DNA of 63,846 nt, filler included, from Collodictyon triciliatum (lineage: Eukaryota), in the NCBI GenBank assembly GCA_043381765.1. It is 30 parts of 30 records of this genome, joined end to end, with 100 filler letters (N's around TTAATTAATTAA, not from the genome) between each part and the next. Parts side by side here need not be neighbours in the genome. Positions count along the whole stretch, not along the records: positions 21,476 to 23,520 come from JBHJMP010009651.1; 29 more parts are not named here. The stretch is one strand, 5' to 3'. The notes beneath the pieces are model-generated. The model was not told the origin of the DNA. It worked only from the letters and a program-made list of their open reading frames with translations, and made no database searches. The position numbers were made by a program, and so were the translations under genes. Every line of letters begins with the position of its first letter. Position 1 is the stretch's first letter. Below, piece after piece: positions 12,894 to 51,826 of this stretch.

Positions 12894-14939
12894 GCTGTTT
12901 CATCAGCTGCTGCTTCGTTGCCTGCTGTCTCGTTGAGTGCTGCTTCATTAGCTGCTGCTTCATTGGCTGCTGCTTCGATGACTGTTGTCTCGTTGACTGC
13001 TGTCTCATTACCTGTTGTTTCGTTGACTGCTGCTTCGTTGACTGCTGCTTCATTGGCTGCTGCTTCATTGGCTGCTGTCTCGTTGACTGTTGTCTCGTTG
13101 ACTGTTGTCTCATCGGCTGTTGTTTCGTTGGCCATTGTTTCATCAGCTGCTGCTTCATCGCCTGCTGCTTCATAGGCTGTTGTCTCGTTGACTGTTGTCT
13201 CATCGGCTGTTGTTTCGTTGGCCATTGTTTCATCAGCTGCTGCTTCATCGCCTGCTGCTTCATGGGCTGTTGTTTCGTTGACTGTTGTCTCATCGGCTGT
13301 TGCTTCATCAGCTGTTGCTTCATCGGCTGCTGTTTCATCGGCTGCTGTCTCGTTGCCTGCTGTTTCATTGATGGCTGTTTCATTGACTGTTGTCTCGTTG
13401 CCTGCTGTCTCGTTGCCTGCTGTCTCGTTGCCTGCTGTCTCATTACCTGTTGTTTCGTTGACTGTTGTCTCATCGGCTGCTGCTTCATCGACTATTGCTT
13501 CATTGACGGCTGCTTCATTGGCTGTTACTTCATCGGCTGCTGTTTCATCGGCTGCTGTTTCATTGACGGTTGCTTCGTTGGTTGCTGTCTCGTTGCCTGC
13601 TGTCTCGTTGCCTGCTGTCTCGTTGGCTGCTGCTTCATCGGCTGTTGCTTCATTGACTGTTGTTTCATCAACTGCTGTTTCATCAGCTGCTATCTCGTTG
13701 CCTGCTGCTTCATCGGCTGTTGTTTCATCGGCTGCTGTCTCGTTGCCTGCTGCTTCGTTGCCTGTTGTTTCATCGGCTGCTGTTTCATCGGCTGTTGCTT
13801 CATTGACTGTTGTTTCATCAACTGCTGCTTCATCGACTGTTGTTTCATCGGCTGTTGCTTCATTGACTGTTGTTTCATCAACTGCTGCTTCATCGGCTGT
13901 TGTTTCATCGGCTGCTGTTTCATTGACGGTTGCTTCGTCGACTGCTGTCTCGTTGCCTGCTGCTTCATCGGCTGTTGTTTCATCAGCTGCTGTCTCGTTG
14001 CCTGCTGTCTCGTTGCCTGCTGTCTCGTTGACTGCTGCTTCGTTGCCTGCTGCTTCATCGGCTGTTGTTTCATCGGCTGCTGTCTCGTTGCCTGCTGCTT
14101 CATCGGCTGTTGCTTCATCGGCTGCTGTTTCATCGGCTGTTGCTTCATTGACTGTTGCTTCATTGACTGTTGTTTCATCAACTGCTGCTTCATCGGCTGT
14201 TGTTTCATCGGCTGCTGTCTCGTTGACTGCTGCTTCGTTGCCTGCTGCTTCGTTGCGTGCTGCTTCATTGACTGTTTCTTCATTGACTGTTGTTTCATCA
14301 GCTGCTGTTTCATCGGCTGTTGCTTCATTGACTGTTGTTTCATCAGCTGCTGTCTCGTTGACTGTTGCTTCATCGGCTGTTGTTTCATCAACTGCTGCTT
14401 CATCGGCTGTTGCTTCATCGGCTGTTGTTTCATCAGCTGCTGTCTCGTTGCCTACTGTCTCATTACCTGCTGTTTCATCAGCTGTTGTCTCATTGGCTGC
14501 TGCTTCGTTGCCTGCTGTCTCGTTGACTGCTGCTTCATCGGCTGTTGTTTCATCGGCTGCTGTCTCGTTGACTGCTGCTTCGTTGCCTGTTGCTTCGTTG
14601 CCTGCTGCTTCGTTGCCTGCTGCTTCGTTGCCTGCTGCTTCGTTGCCTGCTGCTTCGTTGCCTGCTGCTTCATTGACTGTTGCTTCATTGACTGTTGCTT
14701 CATTGACTGTTGCTTCATTGACTGCTGCTTCATTGACTGCTGCTTCATCGGCTGTTGTCTCATTACCTGTTGTTTCTTTGACTGCTGCTTCATTGACTGT
14801 TGTTTCATCGGCTGTTGTTTCATCGGCTGCTGTCTCGTTGACTGCTGCTTCGTTGCCTGCTGCTTCGTTGCCTGCTGCTTCATCGGCTGTTGTTTCATCG
14901 CCTGCTGTTTCATCGGCTGTTGCTTCATTGACTGTTGTT
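12894..14939 (-). CDS. Pentapeptide-repeat acidic glycoprotein segment, (A/T)(A/T)(A/V/G)(N/D)E, from a 15-bp tandem repeat filling the contig
   Basis: The minus frame reading NETAANEAAADET appears open across the contig. Glu is near-invariant with GAA/GAG synonymous variation. The alternative plus SSAAV frame has TAG at 13173-13175. Confidence 0.6.
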
Positions 14940-15040
14940 NNNNNNNNNNNNNNNNNNNNNNNNNNNNNNNNNNNNNNNNNNNNTTAATTAATTAANNNNN
15001 NNNNNNNNNNNNNNNNNNNNNNNNNNNNNNNNNNNNNNNG

Positions 15041-17085
15041 TCCACGTCTGCTTCTATCACTGTTCCTGGGTCGATATCCGCCTCCTCCTCAAACACTGAA
15101 CTGAATGATGACGTGTCTGGCTCTAGTGCTTCGAGTCGCATGGAGTCAGTTGTGACTGCTCCTCACTCAGAATTACAGGATACTCAATCCATCTCGAATG
15201 TTGCCTCTCTCACTACATCCAGCCCACACTCTGCCTCATTTTCAGTGACCGAATCATCCAGTGAATCGGAGAGCTCATCGCCAACTGCGACATTCTTTCC
15301 ATCAGAATCCGCAACTAGCTCCCTCCTCGACCAAGCCTCGCCCTCGGATGCCCGTCCCTCGAAAGAGGTGACTACAACCGCTAAAAGGTCTCCTGCTTCA
15401 CCTTCTCAGCCTCCTTCGTCATCGAGTGCAGTGCATCCATCGACATCAGAATCTAATTCTAGACTCATGTCTCAAGTTATCACCAACCAGCACACATCCA
15501 GTGGTGGTGTTTCTGTTACAAAACCCAACAGTCCATCTGAAACAAACCTGATTTCACCATCCCCCTTGCATTCTTCGTCGAGATTGACCTCACAATCGCA
15601 TTCTGAATCCATGTCTGAGTCTGCCACTATCTCATCTCAAGCTTCAGACTCTGTAACGCCTCTGGGTGCCACTTATGAGTCTACCTATGTTTCGGTCTCA
15701 GCTGCCACACATATCATCGCATCTACTAGTTCTCACTCAAGAGATGCAACCGTCGCAGCCTCTAGTAGCAAATCAAACTCTTATTCTTACCATTCTGACA
15801 TGCCCTCAGCTTTGCCTTCAGATATACCTACGGATGTGCCCTCAGCTTTGCCATCAAATTTAAATTCTGATCTATCATCTGGTATACCCTCGGATCTGAT
15901 ATCTGATTCTGCCTACTCTACAGCCTCAAAATCAGCGATAACAGCTAATTCAGATTTCAAGTCAACGTATAGTGACACCCGATCGGTGATATCCACTGGA
16001 AACACAGAGACAAAATCTTTTGCTCATCTTACTGAGACGGCTGTGGCATCTGATTCCGTTTCTCCTCTAGACTCCGGTATCTCTCAATCTGCATCCAGCT
16101 CTGAGTCCGAAACCGTAATGAAGCCAACCACTACACTTACACCTCACAATAGCTCAAAAACAAAGGTATCTCACTCGGCTTCAGAGGAAAATCAATATGT
16201 ATCTGCCACTCACATGCAAACCCAAACCCATTTGCGTACGTCTCAAGCTCAGGCTCACACCCAGTCCCAGCCTCAAAATCTTCCTCAGACCCAGACTGGA
16301 GCTGCAAGCCATAGCTCGGCTCATTCCCTTTTGAATCCTACTACCAGTCATTCAGGGTCTGTTTCTATGATTCATTCGCAGTCCTCCTCGAATGATGTGA
16401 ATATGGCCACTGATTCCGTAAGTATGAGTCAAATCCAGTCGTCAGACACTGAACCCCCTTCCTACACTGGAACTACCGGTAACGAGAAGTCAAACTCGAA
16501 GTCCCCTGGTGGAGTGAACTCTGTTTCTGAACCTCCATCACACTCTAAAACCATGTCTCACTCCGAATCCATGTCGGAGTCAAAGTATCAGACTTTGGAT
16601 CGACCGGAAACTGAGCCCAATTCTAATGCTGAAACGCAAACGCAAACTATAGACAGTAATCCTGCATCAAATTCGGCTGGTCGTACTACATCTTCAACTG
16701 TTAAAAATCTCACACCATCTACCTCCTCAACAGGTACAACAGCAAAAATAGCGACCCAGTCTTATATAACTCACCAATTTGATACAGCTACACCAGCCAG
16801 TAATGACTCTAAAACATATTCCTTGGCCCCTTCGGAACTTAATACTTCTAAACAGAATGAGACGAAAACGCAATCTCAAGTGAACAATCAATCACAGAGT
16901 AGCCACCAATCAGACTTTGAATCTCAGTTGCCAACAGGATCGTTGGTCATTGGAGAGTCCCCGTCTATGTCTCGGAGCCTTCCGCTGGACTGCCCTCCCG
17001 GTACGTACCCCAATGAGTGTCGGCAGTGTGGCCCAAAGAAACCTGCAGTTCCCATTGAATTTTCTGTCATCCCCAGTGACGCTGG
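15041..17085 (+). CDS. Ser/Thr-rich mucin-like extracellular protein segment with a Cys-rich module at its end (partial at both ends)
   Basis: Frame open across the whole contig (~680 aa), strongly S/T/P/H biased, ending CPPGTYPNECRQCGPK. Confidence 0.75.
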
Positions 17086-21475: not shown

Positions 21476-21572
21476 TTGTTTGTTTGTTTGTTTGTTTGTT
21501 TGTTTGTTTGTTTGTTTGTTTGTTTGTTTGTTTGTTTGTTTGTTTGTTTGTTTGTTTGTTTGTTTGTTTGTT
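21476..21572. repeat. (TTTG)n microsatellite
   Basis: Directly visible. Confidence 0.95.
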
Positions 21573-21648
21573 CGAGGTTAAGCGAAGATGACAAGTTTTA
21601 TCCAATCCAAGTCTAATGTGCCTCTCGAGCCGCCTCATTCTAAAGCAT

Positions 21649-21933
21649 GAAAAAAAAAAAAAAAAACAAACACGCGAGCGATGGGAAAGAGCAATTCTGA
21701 GAAGGGCGAGACCGCCAACCAGGATATCAGCGTCATAGCCCTGCCCCATGGAGCGCCTACTGACTAAACGCGAACGAGGAGGCCGACGAAGCCAACCCAG
21801 AGAGGGAATAGGTCACTTTACCACATCTCTTGCAACACAGATTATGCACCGAGGCACACCGACGAACAAGACGGCAGCTGCCATTAACCCGTGATTACGA
21901 CAACCTACTTATAAGACGGAGCAAGCTCTTTGA
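21649..21933 (-). repeat. Dispersed ~262-bp GC-rich element, copy B (candidate Pol III ncRNA or SINE)
   Basis: Collinear with 24725-24995, roughly 75-80% identical by eye, with both ends shared and an oligo-T at the minus-strand 3' end. Confidence 0.8.
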
Positions 21934-22981
21934 TGGAGCGAGGCAGAAGCGAAGTGATAGTCTTTTGCACACAGAGCATGAGCATGCAACGCGCAATGAG
22001 CACACCTCTGTGGCATGGACGACTGCAACGCTCCTAGCCTGCTGTCACAGGGAGATCTCAAAACATACAATATAGCAACCCATAGGACAATAAAACAAAT
22101 ATCATCTATTCTTTTGTAAAGATTATGCGTAAAATGAAGAATCAAGTAAAGTTAAACATCCCCCACAATGAAGTGGGTCAAAACAATTACGTAAAAAACA
22201 GTGAATTTTTTGTGTCATTTGAAAGGATTGAGGTAATTTATTGGCGGCTTTTTACGATAATAAATGATGTTTTAAGAAGTTTGAATATTGAATGGTATAT
22301 GTTGGTATAAAAACTATATAGTTCGATTTGACGGAGCAAGAAGATAAGCAAAAGGTCATTTTATCGCGCCCAATCGGCATGAGCGACGTTCAGGTTTCCA
22401 AATACTTGGGTAAAAAATAATATAAGAAAAGCGGCTGCAAGATGAAGCAAAAAATAAAATAAAAATAAAGCGAGAGAAAATGTGGTCTTGCAAAAGTCCA
22501 GAGGCAAAATGAGACGCCCGAAGAAATGGAGGATGACTAGCAAAGATGTGGGTTTACGATAGACAAAGATGACAAAGGGAGATACTCCAGCAAAGAGATG
22601 GAAGCCTCCATTACCAAGGGATCCGCGCAAGTAATCGAAGAGAACAAGAGACTCTGGAGGAAGGGTTAGTAGGATTCAAACTCAAGCTATCGACTCATGA
22701 TCAGCAAGATAAATATGAATATAATGCTCAGTATTGGTTGCTCTGATTCATACAACCGTTTCTTTTTTTCTTTTTCGTTTACATTCCCGTTGCGAAGCAC
22801 GTGTACTATTACAAATCACTCGTAAAAAAACTTTGTGTCTTTTTTTCACAATGCCCACATTTTGAGGGTCTCGGTAGATGCTTAATTTTACATAAATTGA
22901 TTTTATGCAGATATATTGATTAATTGACTAGTAGAGTAAAATTTTTATTAAAATTGAAAACTCTGTAGTTTTCTAAAGGAA

Positions 22982-23520
22982 ATAGTAAAACAAAGACTAT
23001 CAGATACAGAAAAGAAAACGTCTTGAGTCTGAGAATATAAAGTCTGTAAAACCGGACTATCAAAATGTGAAAACATCTCTAAAGTCGATTGTAAAGAATG
23101 CGGATGACTATGACAAAATCAACGATACAGGTTAGTGTCATAATTTGGTTACCGACACTTATCTGTTTGCAGCATGTTACATATTGAAATCACAACAACT
23201 CCCAAGAATCGAGAAATGTTTTTTTCGTACGCTTTAAAGACAGTCGGAATAGTTTCATAAGATAGACCAGCAATTTTTTTTTTTAAAAAAACTATAAATG
23301 AGAAATGACATGATAACATTTTATCTCAATGATTTTCGATTCCTCTTGTCCCGAGAAGAACGCTTTCCGTTGGTTGGACTGTCTCATGTATTACCGTACT
23401 TGGCGAAGCAAATGCTAACATCTTATCATAATAACATTAAGGAGCATTGGTAAAGAGGTTACTGCGCTTTACATATCAAACAGTTCCTAAAGATGAGAAT
23501 ATCACGGAAGCTATTAAAAG
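22982..23520 (+). pseudogene. Fanzor1 (eukaryotic TnpB-like) pseudogene, N-terminal region, cut by the contig end
   Basis: Frameshift-corrected translation KPDYQNVKTSLKSIVKNADDYDKINDT/CHNLVTDTYLFAACYILKSQQLPRIEKCFF/SYALKTVG...LSHVLPYLAKQMLTSYHNNIKEH/VKRLLRFTY follows the Fanzor1 N-terminal motif order. Several frameshifts and a stop at 23258-23260. Confidence 0.7.
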
Positions 23521-24724: not shown

Positions 24725-24995
24725 AAAAAAAAACACGCAAGCGATCGAAAGAACGATCCCGAGAAGGACGAGACCGCCCTCTAGGAGACTGGCGCCACAG
24801 CCCTGCCCCATGGAACGCCTACTGACCGTACGCAAACCGAGAAGGCCGACGCAGCCAACCCAGAGAGCGAAAAGGTCGCTTGACCACTTCCCTCGCAGCG
24901 CAGGTTATGCATCGAGACACACCGACGATCAAGACACCAGCTGCACCGACCCGTGAGTACAACAACCTACGAATAAGACGGAGCGAGCTCTTTGA
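24725..24995 (-). repeat. Dispersed ~262-bp GC-rich element, copy A (candidate Pol III ncRNA or SINE)
   Basis: Homologous to 21649-21933. The minus strand can form an 11-bp stem (cgctctctggg/cctagagggcg) and ends in a T-run. Confidence 0.8.
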
Positions 24996-25765
24996 AACAA
25001 ATAAATAATAATATAATAAGGAGGAATAAAAAAGACCTATCGGGCTCAAGTCATCAACCCGCGGGTAGCAAGATAAGTATGAATATAGTGCTCAGTGTTA
25101 GTTGCCCTGTTTCATTCATCCGTTTCTTTTTTCCTTTTCTTTCTCGTTTTCTTTCTCTTCAGTCTCATTCAGCCTGTAAATGGATAAATTTCATCACAAA
25201 GGCTGTGACGAACTTGTTTTTATCCCTTTCAAGACACAACACTTTTTATGTGACGAAAGTCCAAGACATATGGCAGTTTATTGCACAGACAATTATTAAA
25301 TTAAATCTGGATTGATGAAAGCTAGTTTTGATGAATCCAACAAACAACCTGAATAATAGATTTGTATAATTAGTACTATAATACGATTAAAAATACTTAA
25401 TAATCTCATTTTATTCCTATAATCAATTTATATTTTATTTTCCATTATCTTATTAAAATCCAAAAACTACAAAGAGGCCCTTGCGTTGGCCCGGACAGAA
25501 CCCACCCTATAAAGCTGCCACCAAACATGCATTTCAAAAAAGCATACTATCCACACTTGCGGCGGCAATCATATTGTTTGGGGTCGATATGTTGACTTTC
25601 AGTCGCAATGACTACACGGCTGTCCTTTCGAACTCGCCGAATCGGCTCTCAGCGTTTTGTCTCAANNNNNNNNNNNNNNNNNNNNNNNNNNNNNNNNNNN
25701 NNNNNNNNNTTAATTAATTAANNNNNNNNNNNNNNNNNNNNNNNNNNNNNNNNNNNNNNNNNNNN

Positions 25766-29409: not shown

Positions 29410-30785
29410 ACACTTTTCCATCGCCCTCGCCTGATGCCCTCTCGCCTCACCTACCAGTCACCGAATCATGCACACGCAGTTGAAAAATTATAATAAAAAA
29501 AAAAGAAAAAAGCCCCAAAAGAAAAAGTCGAGACCCTTGCTCCTGCTCTTTCTACTTCAAGCCCAGGCTGCAAACAGGAATATATATTAAAAAAAATAAT
29601 CTGACTGAAACCATTCCTAAGGAGCATGTGTAGAACCAAACCCATCAGACATCATAAATGAACAGATTTTAAGGGACTTAGTCATTCATCAGATTATCAT
29701 TTATGCCAAGACACAGCAGGTCATCTTTCCCGCCATTTATCAATCTTAAGTGTGCGACCAGCCCAAAACATCTTGTTATTTTTATTTTTGTTTTTATTTT
29801 TATTTTTGTTTTATTTTTATTTTTGTTTTATTTTTATTTTTATTTTTATTTTTATTTTTATTTTTGTTTTATTTTTGTTTTATTTTTGTTTTATTTTTGT
29901 TTTATTTTTGTTTTATTTTTGTTTTATTTTTGTTTTATTTTTGTTTTATTTTTGNNNNNNNNNNNNNNNNNNNNNNNNNNNNNNNNNNNNNNNNNNNNTT
30001 AATTAATTAANNNNNNNNNNNNNNNNNNNNNNNNNNNNNNNNNNNNNNNNNNNNAAAAAAAAAAAAAAAAAAAAAAAATCTGGACATTACTGACGGATGG
30101 GATGAAAATAGAGTCCGACAGATTTATTCCTATGTTTTTGGAATAAATAAGGAACGACTGTTTTTTTTTCTTTCTCATTTCTTCACTTAATTTTATTGAA
30201 GCCCCAATAAATCAACCCTTCCGCACCCAGAAAACCTGCACCTCTAAACCCTAGTGCAGCCGTTGCTCCCGACTGCGCTGTCGATTTCGTAAAACAAGAA
30301 GGGAAGAAAATAAAAGCCCTGCGTGCAGAACAAACACCAAAATAATCCTTTCTTTATATAACCATCCAAGAAGCAGCCCATAAATGCCCAAATGCACAGG
30401 CTCCAAGTCAGACGAAAGTGACAACAAGAAAGCAACAAAAACCAACAAAACCAATAAAAACAACTAAACTCGAAGGCCGCGATCACAACCCTTCTCTGCC
30501 ATGATCAGTGATCGGACACCCGCCCCACACAACACCACAACCCAACCTCTTGATCCACCCCACTACCACCACCACGCGTCATGACGCACACACGCCTCAT
30601 CGCCACGACCCCCAACTCACCCAAACACCAAACCAAACCAAACCAAACCAAAGCACACACCACCTCCCCAACTGCCCTACATAGATATATATATATATAA
30701 TCCTTTTTGTTATCACTCCTGCCGAAGCCCAAAAGCAAACATAACACAAACACATACACATACACATACACACATAAAACGGGAA

Positions 30786-31937
30786 ATGAAGAAGCGCACC
30801 GCATCCGCCTGGGCCATGGACTCGCTGCCGGAGGCGCCGACGTACCACCCGACGCGGGAGGAGTTTGCGGACCCGCTGGGGTACATCGAGCGGCTGGGGC
30901 GGCGGGACAGCGCAGCATTTGCGGCGGGGCTGTGCAAGATCGTGCCGCCGGCGGGGGTGTTTGAGCCGCGCTTTGTGCGGGACTGGGACGCGTTTGCCTT
31001 CCGCCCGCGGCGGCAGATGCTGAGCGAGCTGAGCGCGCAGGGCCGCACGCGGTCGCAGTACCTGGACGGGCTGCAGACGTTCTGGACGCTGCGCGGCGTG
31101 GACCTGGATGCGCGTGCGCGGCCCCCGGTCGTGGATCGCCGCCCCCTGGACCTGTACCTGCTGCGCAACGCCGTCCGCGACATGGGCGGCCCCGACGCCG
31201 TCACGCGCCACAAGCACTGGGCCACCATCGGCCGCAGGCTGCGCCTCGACTCCCGCACCTGCACCTCCATCTCCTCCACCCTGCGCCTCCACTACGACCG
31301 CTGGGTGGCCCCCTACGAGGCCTTCGTCGCCGCCATCGCTCCCGCTTCGGCTTCGGCTTCGGCTTCGGCTTCGGCGTCGGCTTCGGCTTCGGCACGCCCT
31401 GGCATCAATATGCACGCCCTCCCTGACTCGCCCCCGAAGCGCCCGCGGCTGGCCGAGGCTCCTGATGAGAACCACAACGACGACGACGTCGACGACGAGG
31501 TCCCGTTCCACCTCTTGTTGCTATATATGTTTTTGGTTTTTGGTTTTTGGATTTTGGATTTTGGATTTTGGATTTTGGATTTTGGATTTTGGATTTTGGA
31601 TTTTGGATTTTGGATTTTGGATTTTGGATTTTGGATTTTGGATTTTGGTTGGTCTATCTATTTGCTGTTATGGTGTGTCTAAATGCTATCATGGTGTGTC
31701 TGCTGTCATGGTGTGTCTAAATGCTGTCATGGTGTGTCCTCATCTGCATGTATGGCTGTGTGGCTGTTACAGGAGTCCGGCTGCATCTGTGGGCCGTGTG
31801 GGGCATCGTTAGATGGCGACGTTGTGGCGTGTGTGCAGTGCCGCGGCAGATGGCACGTGGCGTGTGCTGACCCGCCTGTGCTGGAGCCGCATGTGCAGAC
31901 TCTTCCCTTGTGGCATTGTGCTCGGTGTATTGCCTTG
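30786..31937 (+). CDS. KDM5/Lid-like histone demethylase N-terminus (JmjN, ARID, PHD), partial
   Basis: JmjN (EAPTYHPTREEFADPLGYI...GLCKIVPP), ARID (LDLYLLRNAVRDMGG...WATIGRRL...LRLHYDRW), intron ~31500-31772, then a PHD finger (CGPC...CVQC...HVAC...WHCARC). Confidence 0.88.
31545..31647. repeat. (TTTTGGA)n intronic heptamer array
   Basis: Directly visible inside the KDM5-like intron. Confidence 0.95.
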
Positions 31938-32221
31938 GTGAGTTGGAAGCAGGGGAAGGAATTCGTTCCTTTCCCTTTCCCTCTCCTTTCCCTCTTTTTT
32001 TCTCTCTTCTTTCTCTCTTCTTTCTCTCTTCTTTCTCTCTTCTTTCTCTCTTCTTTCTCTCTTCTTTCTCTCTTCTTTCTCTCTTCTTTCTCTCTTCNNN
32101 NNNNNNNNNNNNNNNNNNNNNNNNNNNNNNNNNNNNNNNNNTTAATTAATTAANNNNNNNNNNNNNNNNNNNNNNNNNNNNNNNNNNNNNNNNNNNNGAG
32201 CGAGAAGGCAAAAGTGATAGT

Positions 32222-33039: not shown

Positions 33040-34241
33040 GTCCTCTCTTTCGCAAACCGTAGCAATATGCGCAAGCAACTGCGTGCTGTAATGGAAGCCC
33101 GAAAGTGTGACGAAGAGGACATGAAAATTATAGCGGGCAACCCCGCCCTCAGCCTCAGGCTCGATTTCCCAAGAAAAAAATGATGCACTTGTAACATTTG
33201 GCGAACAAGAGGAAATTGGGAAGCGAGATACTTGCGAGACTTTGAACAGATGGAGAAATGGTTCTTTGGACTAGGAAAGGAAAAAGAAAAGACCTTGTAT
33301 CCGTTCTGTACACCATCTGCAGACATGCAGCATTTATTACCTCGCAACAACAAAAAGAACACCCACGACTTCTTCTCAAAGATGTGGTCAAGGCGAGACT
33401 ATGATGCTGCTACTCTCGAGCTTATTACCACAAACTGCTCCAAGGCTTCACCCTCGCAAGCAGCCAGCATGATAGCACCTATACATGCAGGCGAATTGTG
33501 GAAAGCGGTCAAGTCGCTACACAACTGAAAGGCGCCAGCCCAGATAGGCTGCACAACGGAATATACTCTGCTTTCTATAATGAGGTCAAGGCATCCTTAG
33601 TGACTTTTCTGAATGGAATCATGTCTGGTGGCGACCTACCGCAAGGATTTACAGAGGCCATGGTGCGGCTGATACCAAAGAAAGGAAACTCGAGCAATCT
33701 TGCAGACTGGCGACCAATATTGCTGTTGAATAATGACTACAAGATATTTACGACGCTACTCAGAAATCGCATATCACCCATCGCTGACAAACTCATATCC
33801 AAAGAGCAGATTGGTTTCATGAACGGAAGGAACATCGACACAAACATCTGGGTCGTCAACAAAGAATACATGGAATATCAAGTAAGCGGGACACCCCGCG
33901 CCATGATTTTCTACAACCTGGAGAAAGCATATGACTATGTGAACCACGAAGCACTGGAAACCATCCTATACAAAAGAGGCTTCTGTACCGGATTCACCAG
34001 TCTTATCAAGAAACTGCACGAAAACGCAACAGCGAGGGTACTCCCGGCACATGGACACGGATGCAATTCAAAGACAGAGCGGTGTGTATCAAGGCAGCCC
34101 ACTTGCACCACTGCTCTTCAACTTTGTTGCTGACTGCCTTGCAAACCACTTCCGAAACGAAAACAAGGTATGCAACCAACTGCTACTTCAATATGCAGAC
34201 GACACAGCATTCATCTTGCGGTCTCCCGAAGGCGTCACACT
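33040..34241 (+). mobile_element. Degraded L1/Tx1-clade non-LTR retrotransposon ORF2 reverse transcriptase
   Basis: LIPKKG...WRPILLLNNDYKI, QIGFMNGRNI, NLEKAYDYVNH, GVYQGSPLAPLLF and QYADDT motifs. Stop at ~33526-33528 and a frameshift near 34045. Confidence 0.93.
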
Positions 34242-49228: not shown

Positions 49229-49453
49229 NNNNNNNNNNNNNNNNNNNNNNNNNNNNNNNNNNNNNNNNNNNNTTAATTAATTAANNNNNNNNNNNNNNNN
49301 NNNNNNNNNNNNNNNNNNNNNNNNNNNNAGCAAGCCAGGCTGTATATTTTTTATTTTTACTTTGCGATATCTTGACAACGTAAGTCTGGCCCTTGACCTT
49401 GATTTCTTTTTTAAATTCGCTCATACCCTTTCTGGAAAATATTTTATTGTCGT

Positions 49454-49650
49454 GCCAAATGCGGAATTTATAATAATTAAAATTACAAATGCGGATGGAA
49501 TATTCTAGAATATTATATTACCAAATGCGGAATTTAAAATAATAAATTTTCCAAATGTGGAATTTATAATAATTAAAATCCAAATATGGTTATAGAATCT
49601 TCTAGAACCTTCCTTTTCTGGATATAGAACCTTCTAGAACCTTCCTTTCC
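49454..49650. repeat. ~31-bp tandem repeats (CCAAATGCGGAATTTATAATAATTAAAAT-like, about 4 copies) plus duplicated TAGAAYCTTCTAGAACCTTCC upstream of the capsid gene
   Basis: Units start at ~49455, 49486, 49521 and 49551. The second motif occurs at ~49593 and ~49625. Confidence 0.85.
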
Positions 49651-49700
49651 AAATCTGGAATTCCACATTAGGAAGGTAAAGGGGTATATAAAGGATGAAC

Positions 49701-49744
49701 TCTTGTACCCAAATTATATATACCTAGATAATTTGGGTACAAGA
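49701..49744. repeat. Perfect 17-bp inverted repeat (hairpin, 10-nt loop)
   Basis: tcttgtacccaaattat (49701-49717) and ataatttgggtacaaga (49728-49744). Confidence 0.97.
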
Positions 49745-49767
49745 AAAGATACAGCTACCTTGAGTCT

Positions 49768-51060
49768 ATGTTTATGAATTACTTGGCAAAAGATTACAAT
49801 GAATGTGTTGGTCAAGCTGTGTTGGGTATAGGTCCTTTTTTCACAAGAGTGCAACGAGTAGATGCAACTGCAGGAGCTGCAACCACTACTACACGAAAGT
49901 TTTGTGTTCCTTTTAGATTGTCTGGTATTTCAAACTACTCGGGTCTAATATCAACTTCACTAATTGATACCGTTTCGGCTTTTCAGATTGAGATTGAACT
50001 GGCGCCTGCTACCGACGCGTGTCAAATTAATAATGTAACTGGAGGGGCTCCTCTTACTAATGCTACATATCAACTCAGTACGTCCTACCTAACATATGAT
50101 GTTGTTCGTATGGCTCCAGAATATCATCAACAATTACAGTCAAGTATTCAACGAGGCATTCCCCTGCAAATTCCTTACAAGACATGGAGAACGTCTATGT
50201 ACAGCTTACCAAACGGCCAACAAACGCTGCATGTTTTCAATATCTACGATACAGTTAAATCACTGAATGCTGTGTACATCGCGTTTTTTAAGCAGCGAGA
50301 GCAAAGTACATTTTTGGTTCCTGGCAAAGATAGAAAGCACAAGCCCCCAACACTTGTTGATGCCCAACTTCAACTCGGCTCATTCTACTACCCCTTGCGG
50401 CCAATGGACTGTGAAGGAAATGCACCCCAAGCATTCCTGGAGCTGCAAAAGGCGCTGGGTCTAACTCACGTTCGAAGTGAATACACCGGGCCGTTTGGTT
50501 TTGATGGCCGAAATTTTGTTGGAAATTATTTAAATAGTAGACAGAATTTGCAGACTGCAGAATTTTCCACCACAATACCTCAACAAGCTGGTGGTGCTGC
50601 TGGTGTTGCACAATCTGTAAATAATACATTTACACCTATAGTCAATGATAATGGTCAAACTGTTAATGGACCATCATTAACTCTAACTCGAGGTGCGAAT
50701 CCTGGTAATGCAAGAGTCGCGTACACTACTACTGTTCGTGCAAATCCAAATCATAGCGCTTTTGAATACACTGCTGACGTTGGCGTTTCTATAGTCCCCA
50801 GAAATTATTATGGAGGCGTTTGCCAGGGCCCATGCACTGAATTTATGATTGGCTTCAATCTCCGCAAAGTCCTCGATGCAGTTGAAGGGGAGATCGTGGG
50901 AACAGACATCCAGTCATCCGGCAGCGGCTTGATGTCATTGCGATTAAATTTCAATGCTCCTATTGGTGATACTGACGGGCCATACAATATTATTGTTGCA
51001 TCGCTGTACGACGCCGTCCTTGAAATTCAATCCAACCAACAGACTTTCCGCGTAGAATAA
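49768..51060 (+). CDS. Polinton-like virus/virophage-type double jelly-roll major capsid protein, probably N-terminally truncated
   Basis: Intronless 430-aa ORF with PLV-MCP-like motifs: FCVPFRLSG...FQIEIELAP, YQLSTSYLTYDVV, IPYKTW, VKSLNAVY, QLQLGSFYYP...QAFLELQKALG, FMIGFNL, LYDAVLEI. Confidence 0.8.
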   Translation: MFMNYLAKDYNECVGQAVLGIGPFFTRVQRVDATAGAATTTTRKFCVPFRLSGISNYSGLISTSLIDTVSAFQIEIELAPATDACQINNVTGGAPLTNATYQLSTSYLTYDVVRMAPEYHQQLQSSIQRGIPLQIPYKTWRTSMYSLPNGQQTLHVFNIYDTVKSLNAVYIAFFKQREQSTFLVPGKDRKHKPPTLVDAQLQLGSFYYPLRPMDCEGNAPQAFLELQKALGLTHVRSEYTGPFGFDGRNFVGNYLNSRQNLQTAEFSTTIPQQAGGAAGVAQSVNNTFTPIVNDNGQTVNGPSLTLTRGANPGNARVAYTTTVRANPNHSAFEYTADVGVSIVPRNYYGGVCQGPCTEFMIGFNLRKVLDAVEGEIVGTDIQSSGSGLMSLRLNFNAPIGDTDGPYNIIVASLYDAVLEIQSNQQTFRVE

Positions 51061-51076
51061 AATATTTATATAAGTA

Positions 51077-51232
51077 ATGGAACCGATTACAATAATCTCA
51101 TTACTTATGACTTGTGTGCTCGTGATAGAGCAAGTCTGGAAATATACCGTCGACCATCTCAAGCGCAGTTCGTGTTATGGTGGCACTGTCGAATTTAAAA
51201 GTGAAAAGGATTTGTTACATAACGCGTCTTGA
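51077..51232 (+). CDS. Small 51-aa hydrophobic viral-type protein downstream of the capsid gene
   Basis: MEPITIISLLMTCVLVIEQVWKYTVDHLKRSSCYGGTVEFKSEKDLLHNAS*, starting 16 nt after the MCP stop. Below the ORF-track size cutoff. Confidence 0.6.
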   Translation: MEPITIISLLMTCVLVIEQVWKYTVDHLKRSSCYGGTVEFKSEKDLLHNAS

Positions 51233-51324
51233 AATTTTAAAATGGGCCGCCCGCCCCCAGCACCAAACCGCATGAAATCATTTTCCGGCTAAGGTCAATC
51301 GCTGGTTAATTGGGCTTTTTACCT

Positions 51325-51355
<31 letters not shown>

Positions 51356-51826
51356 AATTTTTTTTTNNNNNNNNNNNNNNNNNNNNNNNNNNNNNNNNNN
51401 NNNNNNNNNNTTAATTAATTAANNNNNNNNNNNNNNNNNNNNNNNNNNNNNNNNNNNNNNNNNNNNTTCTTTTTTTTCTTTTTTTCTTTTTTTTTTTAAA
51501 GTGAGCTAATATGTCCGCGGCCCCACATAACCTGACATATTCTTTTGACTGCAAAGGACTTTCACTCTCAAGCAGCAAGCGAAGGACTCAACTTTCACCA
51601 TGGTCTGTTCTGTTTTCTTTTCTTTTTTTTTTATTTGGTTCATTCTCTGTCCTGCATTTTCTGTTCGTTATTCTATTATTATGTCGCGAAAGCACACACA
51701 ACTAGTTTTATTTGCCAACTCGCCGCTTTTTGGGTACTTAAGGGACATTCAGCTTTACTCGTCTTGTTCCGATCCAAACAACTGAGCTGCTGGTGAATAA
51801 CGATGTTTATATTTCACAACGCATAG

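Follow-up and report, generated by a model that had tools for sequence, protein, structure and literature searches.

A probable Fanzor1 pseudogene fragment at the 3' end of a short contig from an apparent freshwater protist

Positions 23004-23518 of the DNA analyzed here represent, with a probability of about 90%, a fragment of a Fanzor1 pseudogene. Fanzor1 proteins are eukaryotic, TnpB-like, ωRNA-guided RuvC endonucleases that are carried on compact (~2 kb) mobile elements, and the 3' end of the element encodes the ωRNA, whose guide begins at the right-end border. The window, i.e., the whole stretch of DNA that was analyzed (63,846 nt), consisted of 30 unrelated contigs of ~2 kb that were chained by N44-TTAATTAATTAA-N44 spacers, and the source organism is apparently a freshwater protist. 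The visible remnant comprised the 5' ~27% of the gene (about 173 of ~650 codons). Because its contig ends at 23520, the RuvC, zinc-finger, and ωRNA parts, if still present, are located outside the window, and the original prediction had rightly placed the 3' parts beyond the contig end. The remnant and its surroundings were composed of the following features:

21476-23520 (2045 nt), no strand: host contig, with the Fanzor1 remnant abutting its 3' end.
21662-22774, no strand: dispersed repeat upstream of the remnant and separate from the Fanzor unit.
22968-23003, + strand: short 5' leader, where the depth of related contigs rises.
23004-23006, + strand: former start codon, now ATA, aligned to Met-1 of the relatives P0001 and P0002.
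23004-23132, + strand: coding remnant 1 in frame 0, equivalent to P0002 residues 1-43, with a KRKR cluster and the PDYQNVKTSLKSI motif.
23133-23135, + strand: in-frame TAG, with one codon fewer than in the homologs, which read V-L-L.
23136 to ~23222, + strand: coding remnant 2 in frame 0 (CHNLVTDTYLFAACYIL…), equivalent to P0002 residues ~46-76.
23212-23226, + strand: -1 frameshift (frame 0 to 2), located at the T7 run 23219-23225 or shortly before it.
~23225 to 23257, + strand: coding remnant 3 in frame 2, SYALKTVGIVS vs. LYALKTVGIVS in P0002.
23258-23260, + strand: TAA stop in the coding frame, where P0002 has R and the close copy P0003 has Q.
23261-23297, + strand: scrambled stretch with a T11 run (23274-23284) and an A7 run (23285-23291), net +1 shift back to frame 0.
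23298-23447, + strand: coding remnant 4 in frame 0 (…FYLNDFRFLLSREERFPLVGLSHVLPYLAKQMLTSYHNNIKEH), the sole clean ORF (51 aa), corresponding to a REC-domain helix.
23446-23449, + strand: -1 frameshift from frame 0 to frame 2, beside a T-run.
23450-23518, + strand: coding remnant 5 in frame 2 (VKRLLRFTYQTVPKDENITEAIK), equivalent to P0002 residues ~151-173.

The best ORF in this region was at most 51 aa long, and no longer one spanned the remnant. A frameshift-aware protein-to-DNA alignment matched 23004-23518 on the + strand to residues 1-173 of P0002, with 103 of 176 columns identical. The alignment score was 447 (P0002 residues 1-175), compared to a mean of 36.1 (sd 5.3) and a maximum of 50 for 30 mononucleotide shuffles of the DNA, and frame 0 alone was matched at an E value of 7e-39 in a tblastn search with P0002. 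This score, together with the presence of every string quoted from it, indicates that the multi-frame peptide assembled in the original prediction is real. Its extent had to be trimmed at the 5' side, where homology begins at 23004, the Met-1 codon, and not at 22982 as had been proposed.

Intact relatives of the remnant were detected by a word-indexed search of 5.8 billion proteins that was restricted to sequences of 311-2000 residues. P0001 (331 aa) and P0002 (648 aa, intact) matched 84% of the frame-0 read-through from their own Met-1, with an E value of ~1e-38 and 53-54% identity. At E<=0.01, P0002 in turn matched three distinct PDB sequences and no others, and each of these was a Fanzor1 protein, namely GtFz1 (2.1e-28), PpFz1 (2.7e-24), and SpuFz1 (3.7e-23). 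The frame-0 read-through itself, compared with the PDB using phmmer (177,635 distinct sequences), had GtFz1 as its top match (E 0.015), and LSHVLPYLAKQMLTSYHNNIKEHW and LSHVLAYSIDNLLTAYKNNIEAHF line up between the two; its second match, a 21-residue peptide with an E value of 1.1, was noise. No PDB match was obtained by phmmer with the short pieces 23441-23518 and 23144-23257. Furthermore, an exhaustive HMMER scan of 1.84 billion representatives recovered 44 relatives at E<=1e-3, including two at E<=1e-10. In all ten relatives that were 597-777 aa in length, the match began at residues 2-27, i.e., at their own N-terminus.

An alignment of 11 full-length relatives (A1) served as the source of a family profile. 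This profile matched SpuFz1 end to end as well as PpFz1 (5e-80) and GtFz1 (1.2e-54), and the next PDB matches began at E 0.11 with the glucocorticoid receptor. Comparison of A1 with the frame-0 read-through by hhalign gave a probability of 99.5 and an E value of 6e-23. The A1 consensus was VKTSLKSI … LY.L … P … L.YL…M.T…NNIKEHF..RL.RF.N, and both this consensus and the HMMER alignment to SpuFz1 reproduced the series of motifs that the original prediction had given for Fanzor1, so that the series given there was reliable. Pfam and PHROGs searches with the five pieces and the frame-0 read-through returned nothing meaningful (best E 0.087-0.2) because the N-terminus of Fanzor1 is not modelled in those libraries. 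By sequence and profile comparison, the fragment is thus specifically homologous to Fanzor1 proteins, which form one clade apart from Fanzor2 and TnpB (Bao and Jurka, 2013; PMC3627910). Neither the word search of 5.8 billion proteins nor the HMMER scan recovered a full-length protein that was >54% identical; therefore, relatives at 50-54% identity, along with remoter ones, are the basis of the family assignment.

The residues of the remnant could be placed on the structure of SpuFz1, for which the numbering used here is the chain index minus 394, as verified on D383 (the D of IDPNK). In PDYQNVKTS of the window, Y corresponds to H21, Q to T22, and K to K25 in the WED domain; in LSHVLPYL, S corresponds to Q129, H to Q130, and P to N133; the K of NIKEH corresponds to Q148, and the second R of KRLLRF to R157. 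In SpuFz1, the equivalent residues are involved in stacking on, or contacts with, the first base pair between guide and target, in recognition of the CATA TAM, and in holding the backbone of the heteroduplex, and Q129, Q130, N133, and Q148 are the TAM-reading residues in a REC-domain helix (PMC10432273). According to this mapping, what is left of the gene comprises the N-terminal tail together with the first WED strand and the first REC helices. At 23010-23021, the KRKR cluster resembles a nuclear localization signal and may have functioned as such; N-terminal signals of this type have been reported for about 60% of Fanzor ORFs (PMC10530073).

The family profile and SpuFz1 (Spizellomyces punctatus, SPu-1 element, PDB 8GKH) were aligned from profile position 5-616 to SpuFz1 4-633 (E 4.6e-89), and both share the same order of a WED strand (with K25 as the K of KTS), REC helices, RuvC residues D383 and E541, and a zinc finger. 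SpuFz1 and the window family also both represent compact multi-copy elements of ~2.1 kb, of which many copies are partial (PMC3627910; PMC10432273). On the other hand, Q129, Q130, and N133 of SpuFz1, which read the CATA TAM, are replaced by S, H, and P in the window family, and GtFz1 also has S and H; the TAM of this family was therefore probably different. GtFz1 (Guillardia theta; PDB 9CER/9CES/9CET) shares with the window the REC-helix string LSHVL.Y…LT.Y.NNI..H, whereas the similarity over the visible part amounts to just ~30-40% of residues. Moreover, GtFz1 is intact and biochemically active with an ωRNA (PMC10432273), whereas the window copy is broken and truncated.

The catalytic region was accessible through the full-length relatives. 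In A1, D364 (DPGK) was invariant, and E555, R603, and D604 were near-invariant. The Fanzor/TnpB motif of Bao and Jurka, D-X(125,275)-[TS][TS]-X-X-[C4]-X(5,50)-RD, spans the RuvC domain and the zinc ribbon (PMC3627910), and it was complete in 8 of the 11 full-length relatives; two others retained D…E..TS…RD without the C4 finger, and one was C-terminally broken. Pfam PF07282 (Cas12f1-like_TNB) was detected at E<=0.01 in 6 of 10 full-length relatives, in two cases above the gathering score. The longer relatives thus possess a zinc finger and the D/E/D positions of RuvC; the absence of a RuvC domain from extended copies had been named in the original prediction as an observation that would speak against Fanzor1. 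Fanzor2, IS607-type TnpB, and Cas12 share a distant common ancestry with this family through RuvC and the zinc ribbon. However, no Fanzor2, TnpB, or Cas12 chain was matched by the A1 profile at E<0.1, and LaTranC chains appeared at noise level (E 0.24-0.3). In agreement, Pfam searches revealed no HTH_OrfB_IS605 domain, which would have been expected of Fanzor2 or TnpB, in the fragment, P0001, P0002, or 10 relatives. The credible best matches were all Fanzor1 rather than Fanzor2, TnpB, or Cas12, which bears out the identity that had been predicted.

Relative to P0001, P0002, P0003, and P0004, the window copy has accumulated six lesions within 515 nt, namely the ATA start, the TAG, the TAA, and three frame changes, so that it can be regarded as a pseudogene that yields no protein, as originally proposed. 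It lacks the open reading frame of a functional Fanzor1 member. The lesions were compared with public sequencing runs over 22000-23520. Pieces of 151 nt from a drinking-water metagenome (X1) covered 22870-23020 and 23023-23173 with 0 differences, and a 151-nt piece from a lake-water metagenome of a different study (X2) covered 22983-23133, also with 0 differences. The ATA codon is contained in the X1 and X2 pieces, and the TAG and the unique upstream flank are contained in the X1 pieces; X1 may be the sample behind the window assembly. The TAA at 23258 lies outside the identical-read support that is available for the start loss and the TAG.

Two organism-labelled runs (X3 and X4) contained related contigs in which the same sites were open. 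Position 23006 was G in 9 of 9 listed X3 contigs and in 7 listed X4 contigs, and most contigs covering the site had G at 23006 and A at 23007, which restores ATG AAG. Most covering contigs in these runs also carried T insertions at 23130/23131 and TT after 23134, so that D-T-V-L-L-C-H-N can be read as in the homologs. They likewise had an extra T after 23446 (three contigs in X3 and three in X4) and a T at 23449, by which the E-H-F-V-K common to all homologs is restored. In a minority of the covering contigs (two in X3 and three in X4), one more T was present after 23212. Overall, five of the six lesion sites were open in the majority of contigs covering them. The scrambled stretch at 23261-23297 was ~7 nt longer than its counterpart in P0003, as counted by hand.

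These related copies bear on the question of whether the gene is intact in the organism and its breaks arose from faulty sequencing or assembly, the assembly being fragmentary and of low quality. Such errors could account for the three frame changes, because all of these are located at or beside homopolymers (T7 at 23219-25, T11/A7 at 23274-91, and the T-run at 23446-9) and lie outside the identical independent reads; the assembly is made of ~2-kb contigs, and related copies are open at the frame-change sites. The remaining lesions are of a different kind. The ATA and the TAG with its 3-nt deletion are substitution or deletion lesions rather than homopolymer slips; identical pieces from two separate studies (X1 and X2) contain the ATA, and those of X1 also the TAG; and the TAA at 23258 is a substitution at a position that encodes Q in P0003. 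Even with the frameshifts set aside, the copy is without a start codon and has two stops. Homopolymer assembly error cannot explain the start loss and the two stops, and an intact gene disguised by errors is accordingly very unlikely.

The probability of a functional gene that is decoded by way of short introns, of a ciliate-type genetic code (TAA/TAG=Q), or of programmed frameshifting is practically negligible. The idea draws on the fact that frame 0 from 22920 to the contig end contains 10 TAA/TAG stops and no TGA, that the TAA at 23258 is aligned to Q in P0003, and that 23131-23172 starts with GT and ends with AG, resembling a 42-nt intron. The putative intron, however, is coding in the homologs, which match CHNLVTD.YLF residue for residue, and the alignment with P0002 is colinear with no inserted blocks. 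A ciliate code is contradicted by the TAG, which aligns to L beside a missing codon, by relatives such as P0002 that are open under the standard code, and by other contigs of the window that hold ORFs of 362-713 aa under the standard code. Reassignment of the stops would also be no rescue, because homologous residues lie in frame 2 at 23225-57 and 23450-518. Since related copies are without the frameshifts, the shifts are not a conserved recoding signal, and programmed frameshifting was rejected. A decayed Fanzor1 copy therefore remains the preferred reading of the fragment.

The Fanzor1 family to which the fragment belongs is multi-copy, as the original prediction had suggested in proposing that the protist hosts or hosted such a family. 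X3 and X4 each contained 106 related contigs that were 85-99% alike; in the likeness classes of 99+, 95-99, 90-95, and under 90, there were 10, 26, 40, and 30 contigs in X3 and 9, 25, 50, and 22 contigs in X4, respectively. In tblastn comparisons, the window copy was 82-84% identical to P0003 and P0004, 50-53% to P0001 and P0002, and 28-34% to viral ORFs. P0003 (139 aa, on a 714-nt contig) was identical to the window in 104 of 141 columns, and P0004 was identical in 54 of 69 positions. The first ~37 residues of P0003 correspond to the frame-1 translation of the window, after which it continues in the correct frame; hence, P0003 is a gene predicted on a further copy with a frameshift. To date, the sub-lineage of the window copy is represented by fragments only. 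X3, X4, P0003, and P0004 together indicate membership in a multi-copy mobile element of a eukaryote or large DNA virus. A scan of metagenome contigs with P0002 yielded a single distant locus (L001) at 21% identity, and the other 29 contigs of the window contained no further Fanzor piece in a tblastn search with P0002, in which the remaining matches all had E>1.

The left side of the repeated unit could be approximated from the related contigs. Their depth rose from 9.75/42.4 to 149/196 between adjacent bins at 22968/9, and in three listed contigs the alignment began exactly at 22968 and was preceded by 122-215 nt of unlike sequence. We infer that the repeated unit probably has its left border at ~22968, 36 nt upstream of the former start codon; the border is approximate because one listed contig aligns from 22953. 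X3 and X4 may be RNA, and if this is the case, 22968 could instead be a splice acceptor after 'ctctgtag'. No RNA run containing the remnant was present among the sequencing runs listed. A search for terminal inverted repeats in 22775-23520 returned just an inverted pair of 15 nt (87%; 22856-70 / 23055-69) along with two short direct repeats, all of which are probably due to chance. At the other end, related copies continue past the contig end, with loose ends behind 23519 in 6 and 11 records.

The flank upstream of this border contained a different repeat. Positions 21662-21933 were 82% alike to 24725-24995, and 22703-22774 were 87.5% alike to 25067-25138, both in the next contig of the window, which shares the dispersed repeat and is without a Fanzor piece. 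A microsatellite also flanks the Fanzor1 remnant. Pfam and PDB sequence searches with a 442-aa ORF were blank. Overall, the remnant is most probably a dead copy from a diverged, high-copy repeat family that was cut by the end of a 2-kb contig. Judging from its homologs, the ancestral element may have worked like SpuFz1 or GtFz1, with an ωRNA produced from its 3' end and TAM-dependent cleavage of double-stranded DNA.

Giant viruses also carry Fanzor1 genes related to this family. In IMG/VR, 225 of 261 candidate stretches encoded relatives, and 76 loci (L002-L077) were kept. These had the same full-length architecture as P0002 and were 31-47% identical to it, with the best relatives at 44-47% over the full length. 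Many were located on contigs whose names bear the tag GVMAG, which we take to denote giant-virus metagenome-assembled genomes. The giant-virus Fanzor1 genes were viral, intact, and 28-34% identical to the window copy by tblastn, whereas the window copy was decayed and located among eukaryote-type repeats. In one well-sampled viral subfamily (13 of the 76 loci), the copies were alike from ~75-110 nt upstream of the ATG to a razor-sharp common 3' border (…CTTCAAGGGTGTAAA), after which the flanks were unrelated. By eye, the ORF in these 13 loci apparently ended ~65 nt before the 3' border, at a TGA inside a conserved stem, and the stem halves at the border varied jointly between copies in the alignment, as would be expected of an ωRNA scaffold. 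This viral subfamily displays the downstream parts that a complete element would need and is silent on the window copy itself.

The abundance of the family in giant-virus contigs raises the possibility that the fragment derives from a giant virus, either as viral DNA itself or as a viral segment that was endogenised recently, which would be compatible with a Fanzor1 pseudogene. As a further lead only, the window contig at 49732-51057 pointed to viral clusters, some of which had an NCLDV-capsid/DJR annotation. However, the nearest kin were found outside the viral collection, with P0003/P0004 at 82-84% and P0001/P0002 at 50-53% identity, compared to 28-34% for the viral ORFs. Each organism-labelled run contained 106 diverged contigs (85-99%), as would suit a repeat family in a genome; in addition, the copy shows heavy decay, and its flanks consist of a microsatellite and a dispersed repeat that is common to a non-Fanzor contig. 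A viral origin of the fragment is therefore improbable, and a decayed Fanzor1 copy within a eukaryotic genome fits these observations better.

Among the RNA-guided nucleases of the TnpB/Cas12 group, Fanzors form the eukaryotic branch, and they attract interest as compact tools for genome editing. The fragment adds one decayed locus to a family whose wide distribution among protists, fungi, and giant viruses was already known, and Fanzor was later shown to be an ωRNA-guided, TAM-dependent endonuclease acting on double-stranded DNA (PMC10432273; PMC10530073). In S. punctatus, 42 loci with full-length (19) or partial genes were described, in addition to 134 'ghost' loci (PMC10432273). Partial and decayed Fanzor loci are thus common in Fanzor-bearing genomes, and a decayed copy in a protist is of the expected kind. 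The nearest intact protein in about 5.8 billion database sequences was ~54% identical, and giant-virus Fz1 proteins were 28-47% identical. The practical value of the fragment is that of a pointer, in that the source organism and the two related runs hold a large family of this lineage. As this family is large and its closest intact protein is just ~54% identical, a complete assembly could yield a new Fanzor1 together with its ωRNA. It is conceivable, if doubtful, that active or intact members of an uncharacterised Fanzor1 lineage, with an ωRNA and a TAM of another kind, persist in the source organism. If such an intact copy exists together with its ωRNA, it would represent a new natural RNA-guided nuclease, probably with a different TAM, and would be one more data point on giant virus-host exchange. 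The lineage or its host may already figure in the Fanzor locus tables of PMC10530073.

Three listed contigs from X3 and X4, two public, organism-labelled sequencing runs, started to align with the Fanzor contig exactly at position 22968, just past the sequence 'ctctgtag', and carried 122-215 nt upstream of this point that were unlike the Fanzor contig. Position 22968 may be either the left end of the Fanzor1 element or a splice acceptor. Copies of a giant-virus Fanzor1 subfamily (IMG/VR loci L026, L030, L031, L033, L036, L045, L061, L065, L072, L070, L053, L052, and L067) had an exact 3' border in common (…CTTCAAGGGTGTAAA), which was followed by unrelated flanks. These copies also contained an internal stem, the two halves of which varied jointly from copy to copy (CCTTTC…GAAAGG in contrast to GTGGG…CCCA). 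This stem is probably the ωRNA scaffold of the subfamily and overlaps the end of the ORF.

The Fanzor contig and a neighbouring contig of the window harbored the same dispersed repeat, which consisted of two parts:

21662-21933 and 24725-24995: dispersed repeat, part 1, 82% identity
22703-22774 and 25067-25138: dispersed repeat, part 2, 87.5% identity

The two parts were separated by approximately 770 nt in the Fanzor contig, whereas the gap was only approximately 72 nt in the other contig.

Candidate coding sequences were also identified in the window:

33405-34130, + strand: reverse-transcriptase fragment (Pfam RVT_1, E 2.5e-13)
49732-51057, + strand: 442-aa open frame (contig 49329-51366)
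30585-31679, + strand: JmjN + ARID protein fragment (contig 30055-32097; Pfam E 6.7e-11 and 2.3e-19)

The first of these looks like the remnant of a non-LTR retrotransposon. The 442-aa frame had no match in Pfam and, by sequence search, none in PDB. Its closest clusters in the protein atlas were viral (score 0.96, with 202 of 256 features in common), at a recognition value of 1583, which is below the 2300 mark, and a minority of the members of these clusters carried Capsid_N, Capsid_NCLDV or DJR-like domains. As a lead only, this frame may represent a double-jelly-roll capsid gene that belongs either to a virus or to an endogenous viral element. The 2-kb bin of the JmjN + ARID contig reached 53% G+C, in contrast to 27-44% in most bins of the window, indicating either a strongly heterogeneous base composition or a mixture of organisms in the assembly.

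Two further contigs, placed directly one after the other in the window, had the following content:

12894-14939: trinucleotide-type repeat that fills the entire contig, open in several frames
15040-17085: S/T-rich open frame of 713 aa (including 31 spacer X), spanning its contig end to end

The frames of the former translated as A/T/E/N/V-rich and Q/K/M-rich sequences.
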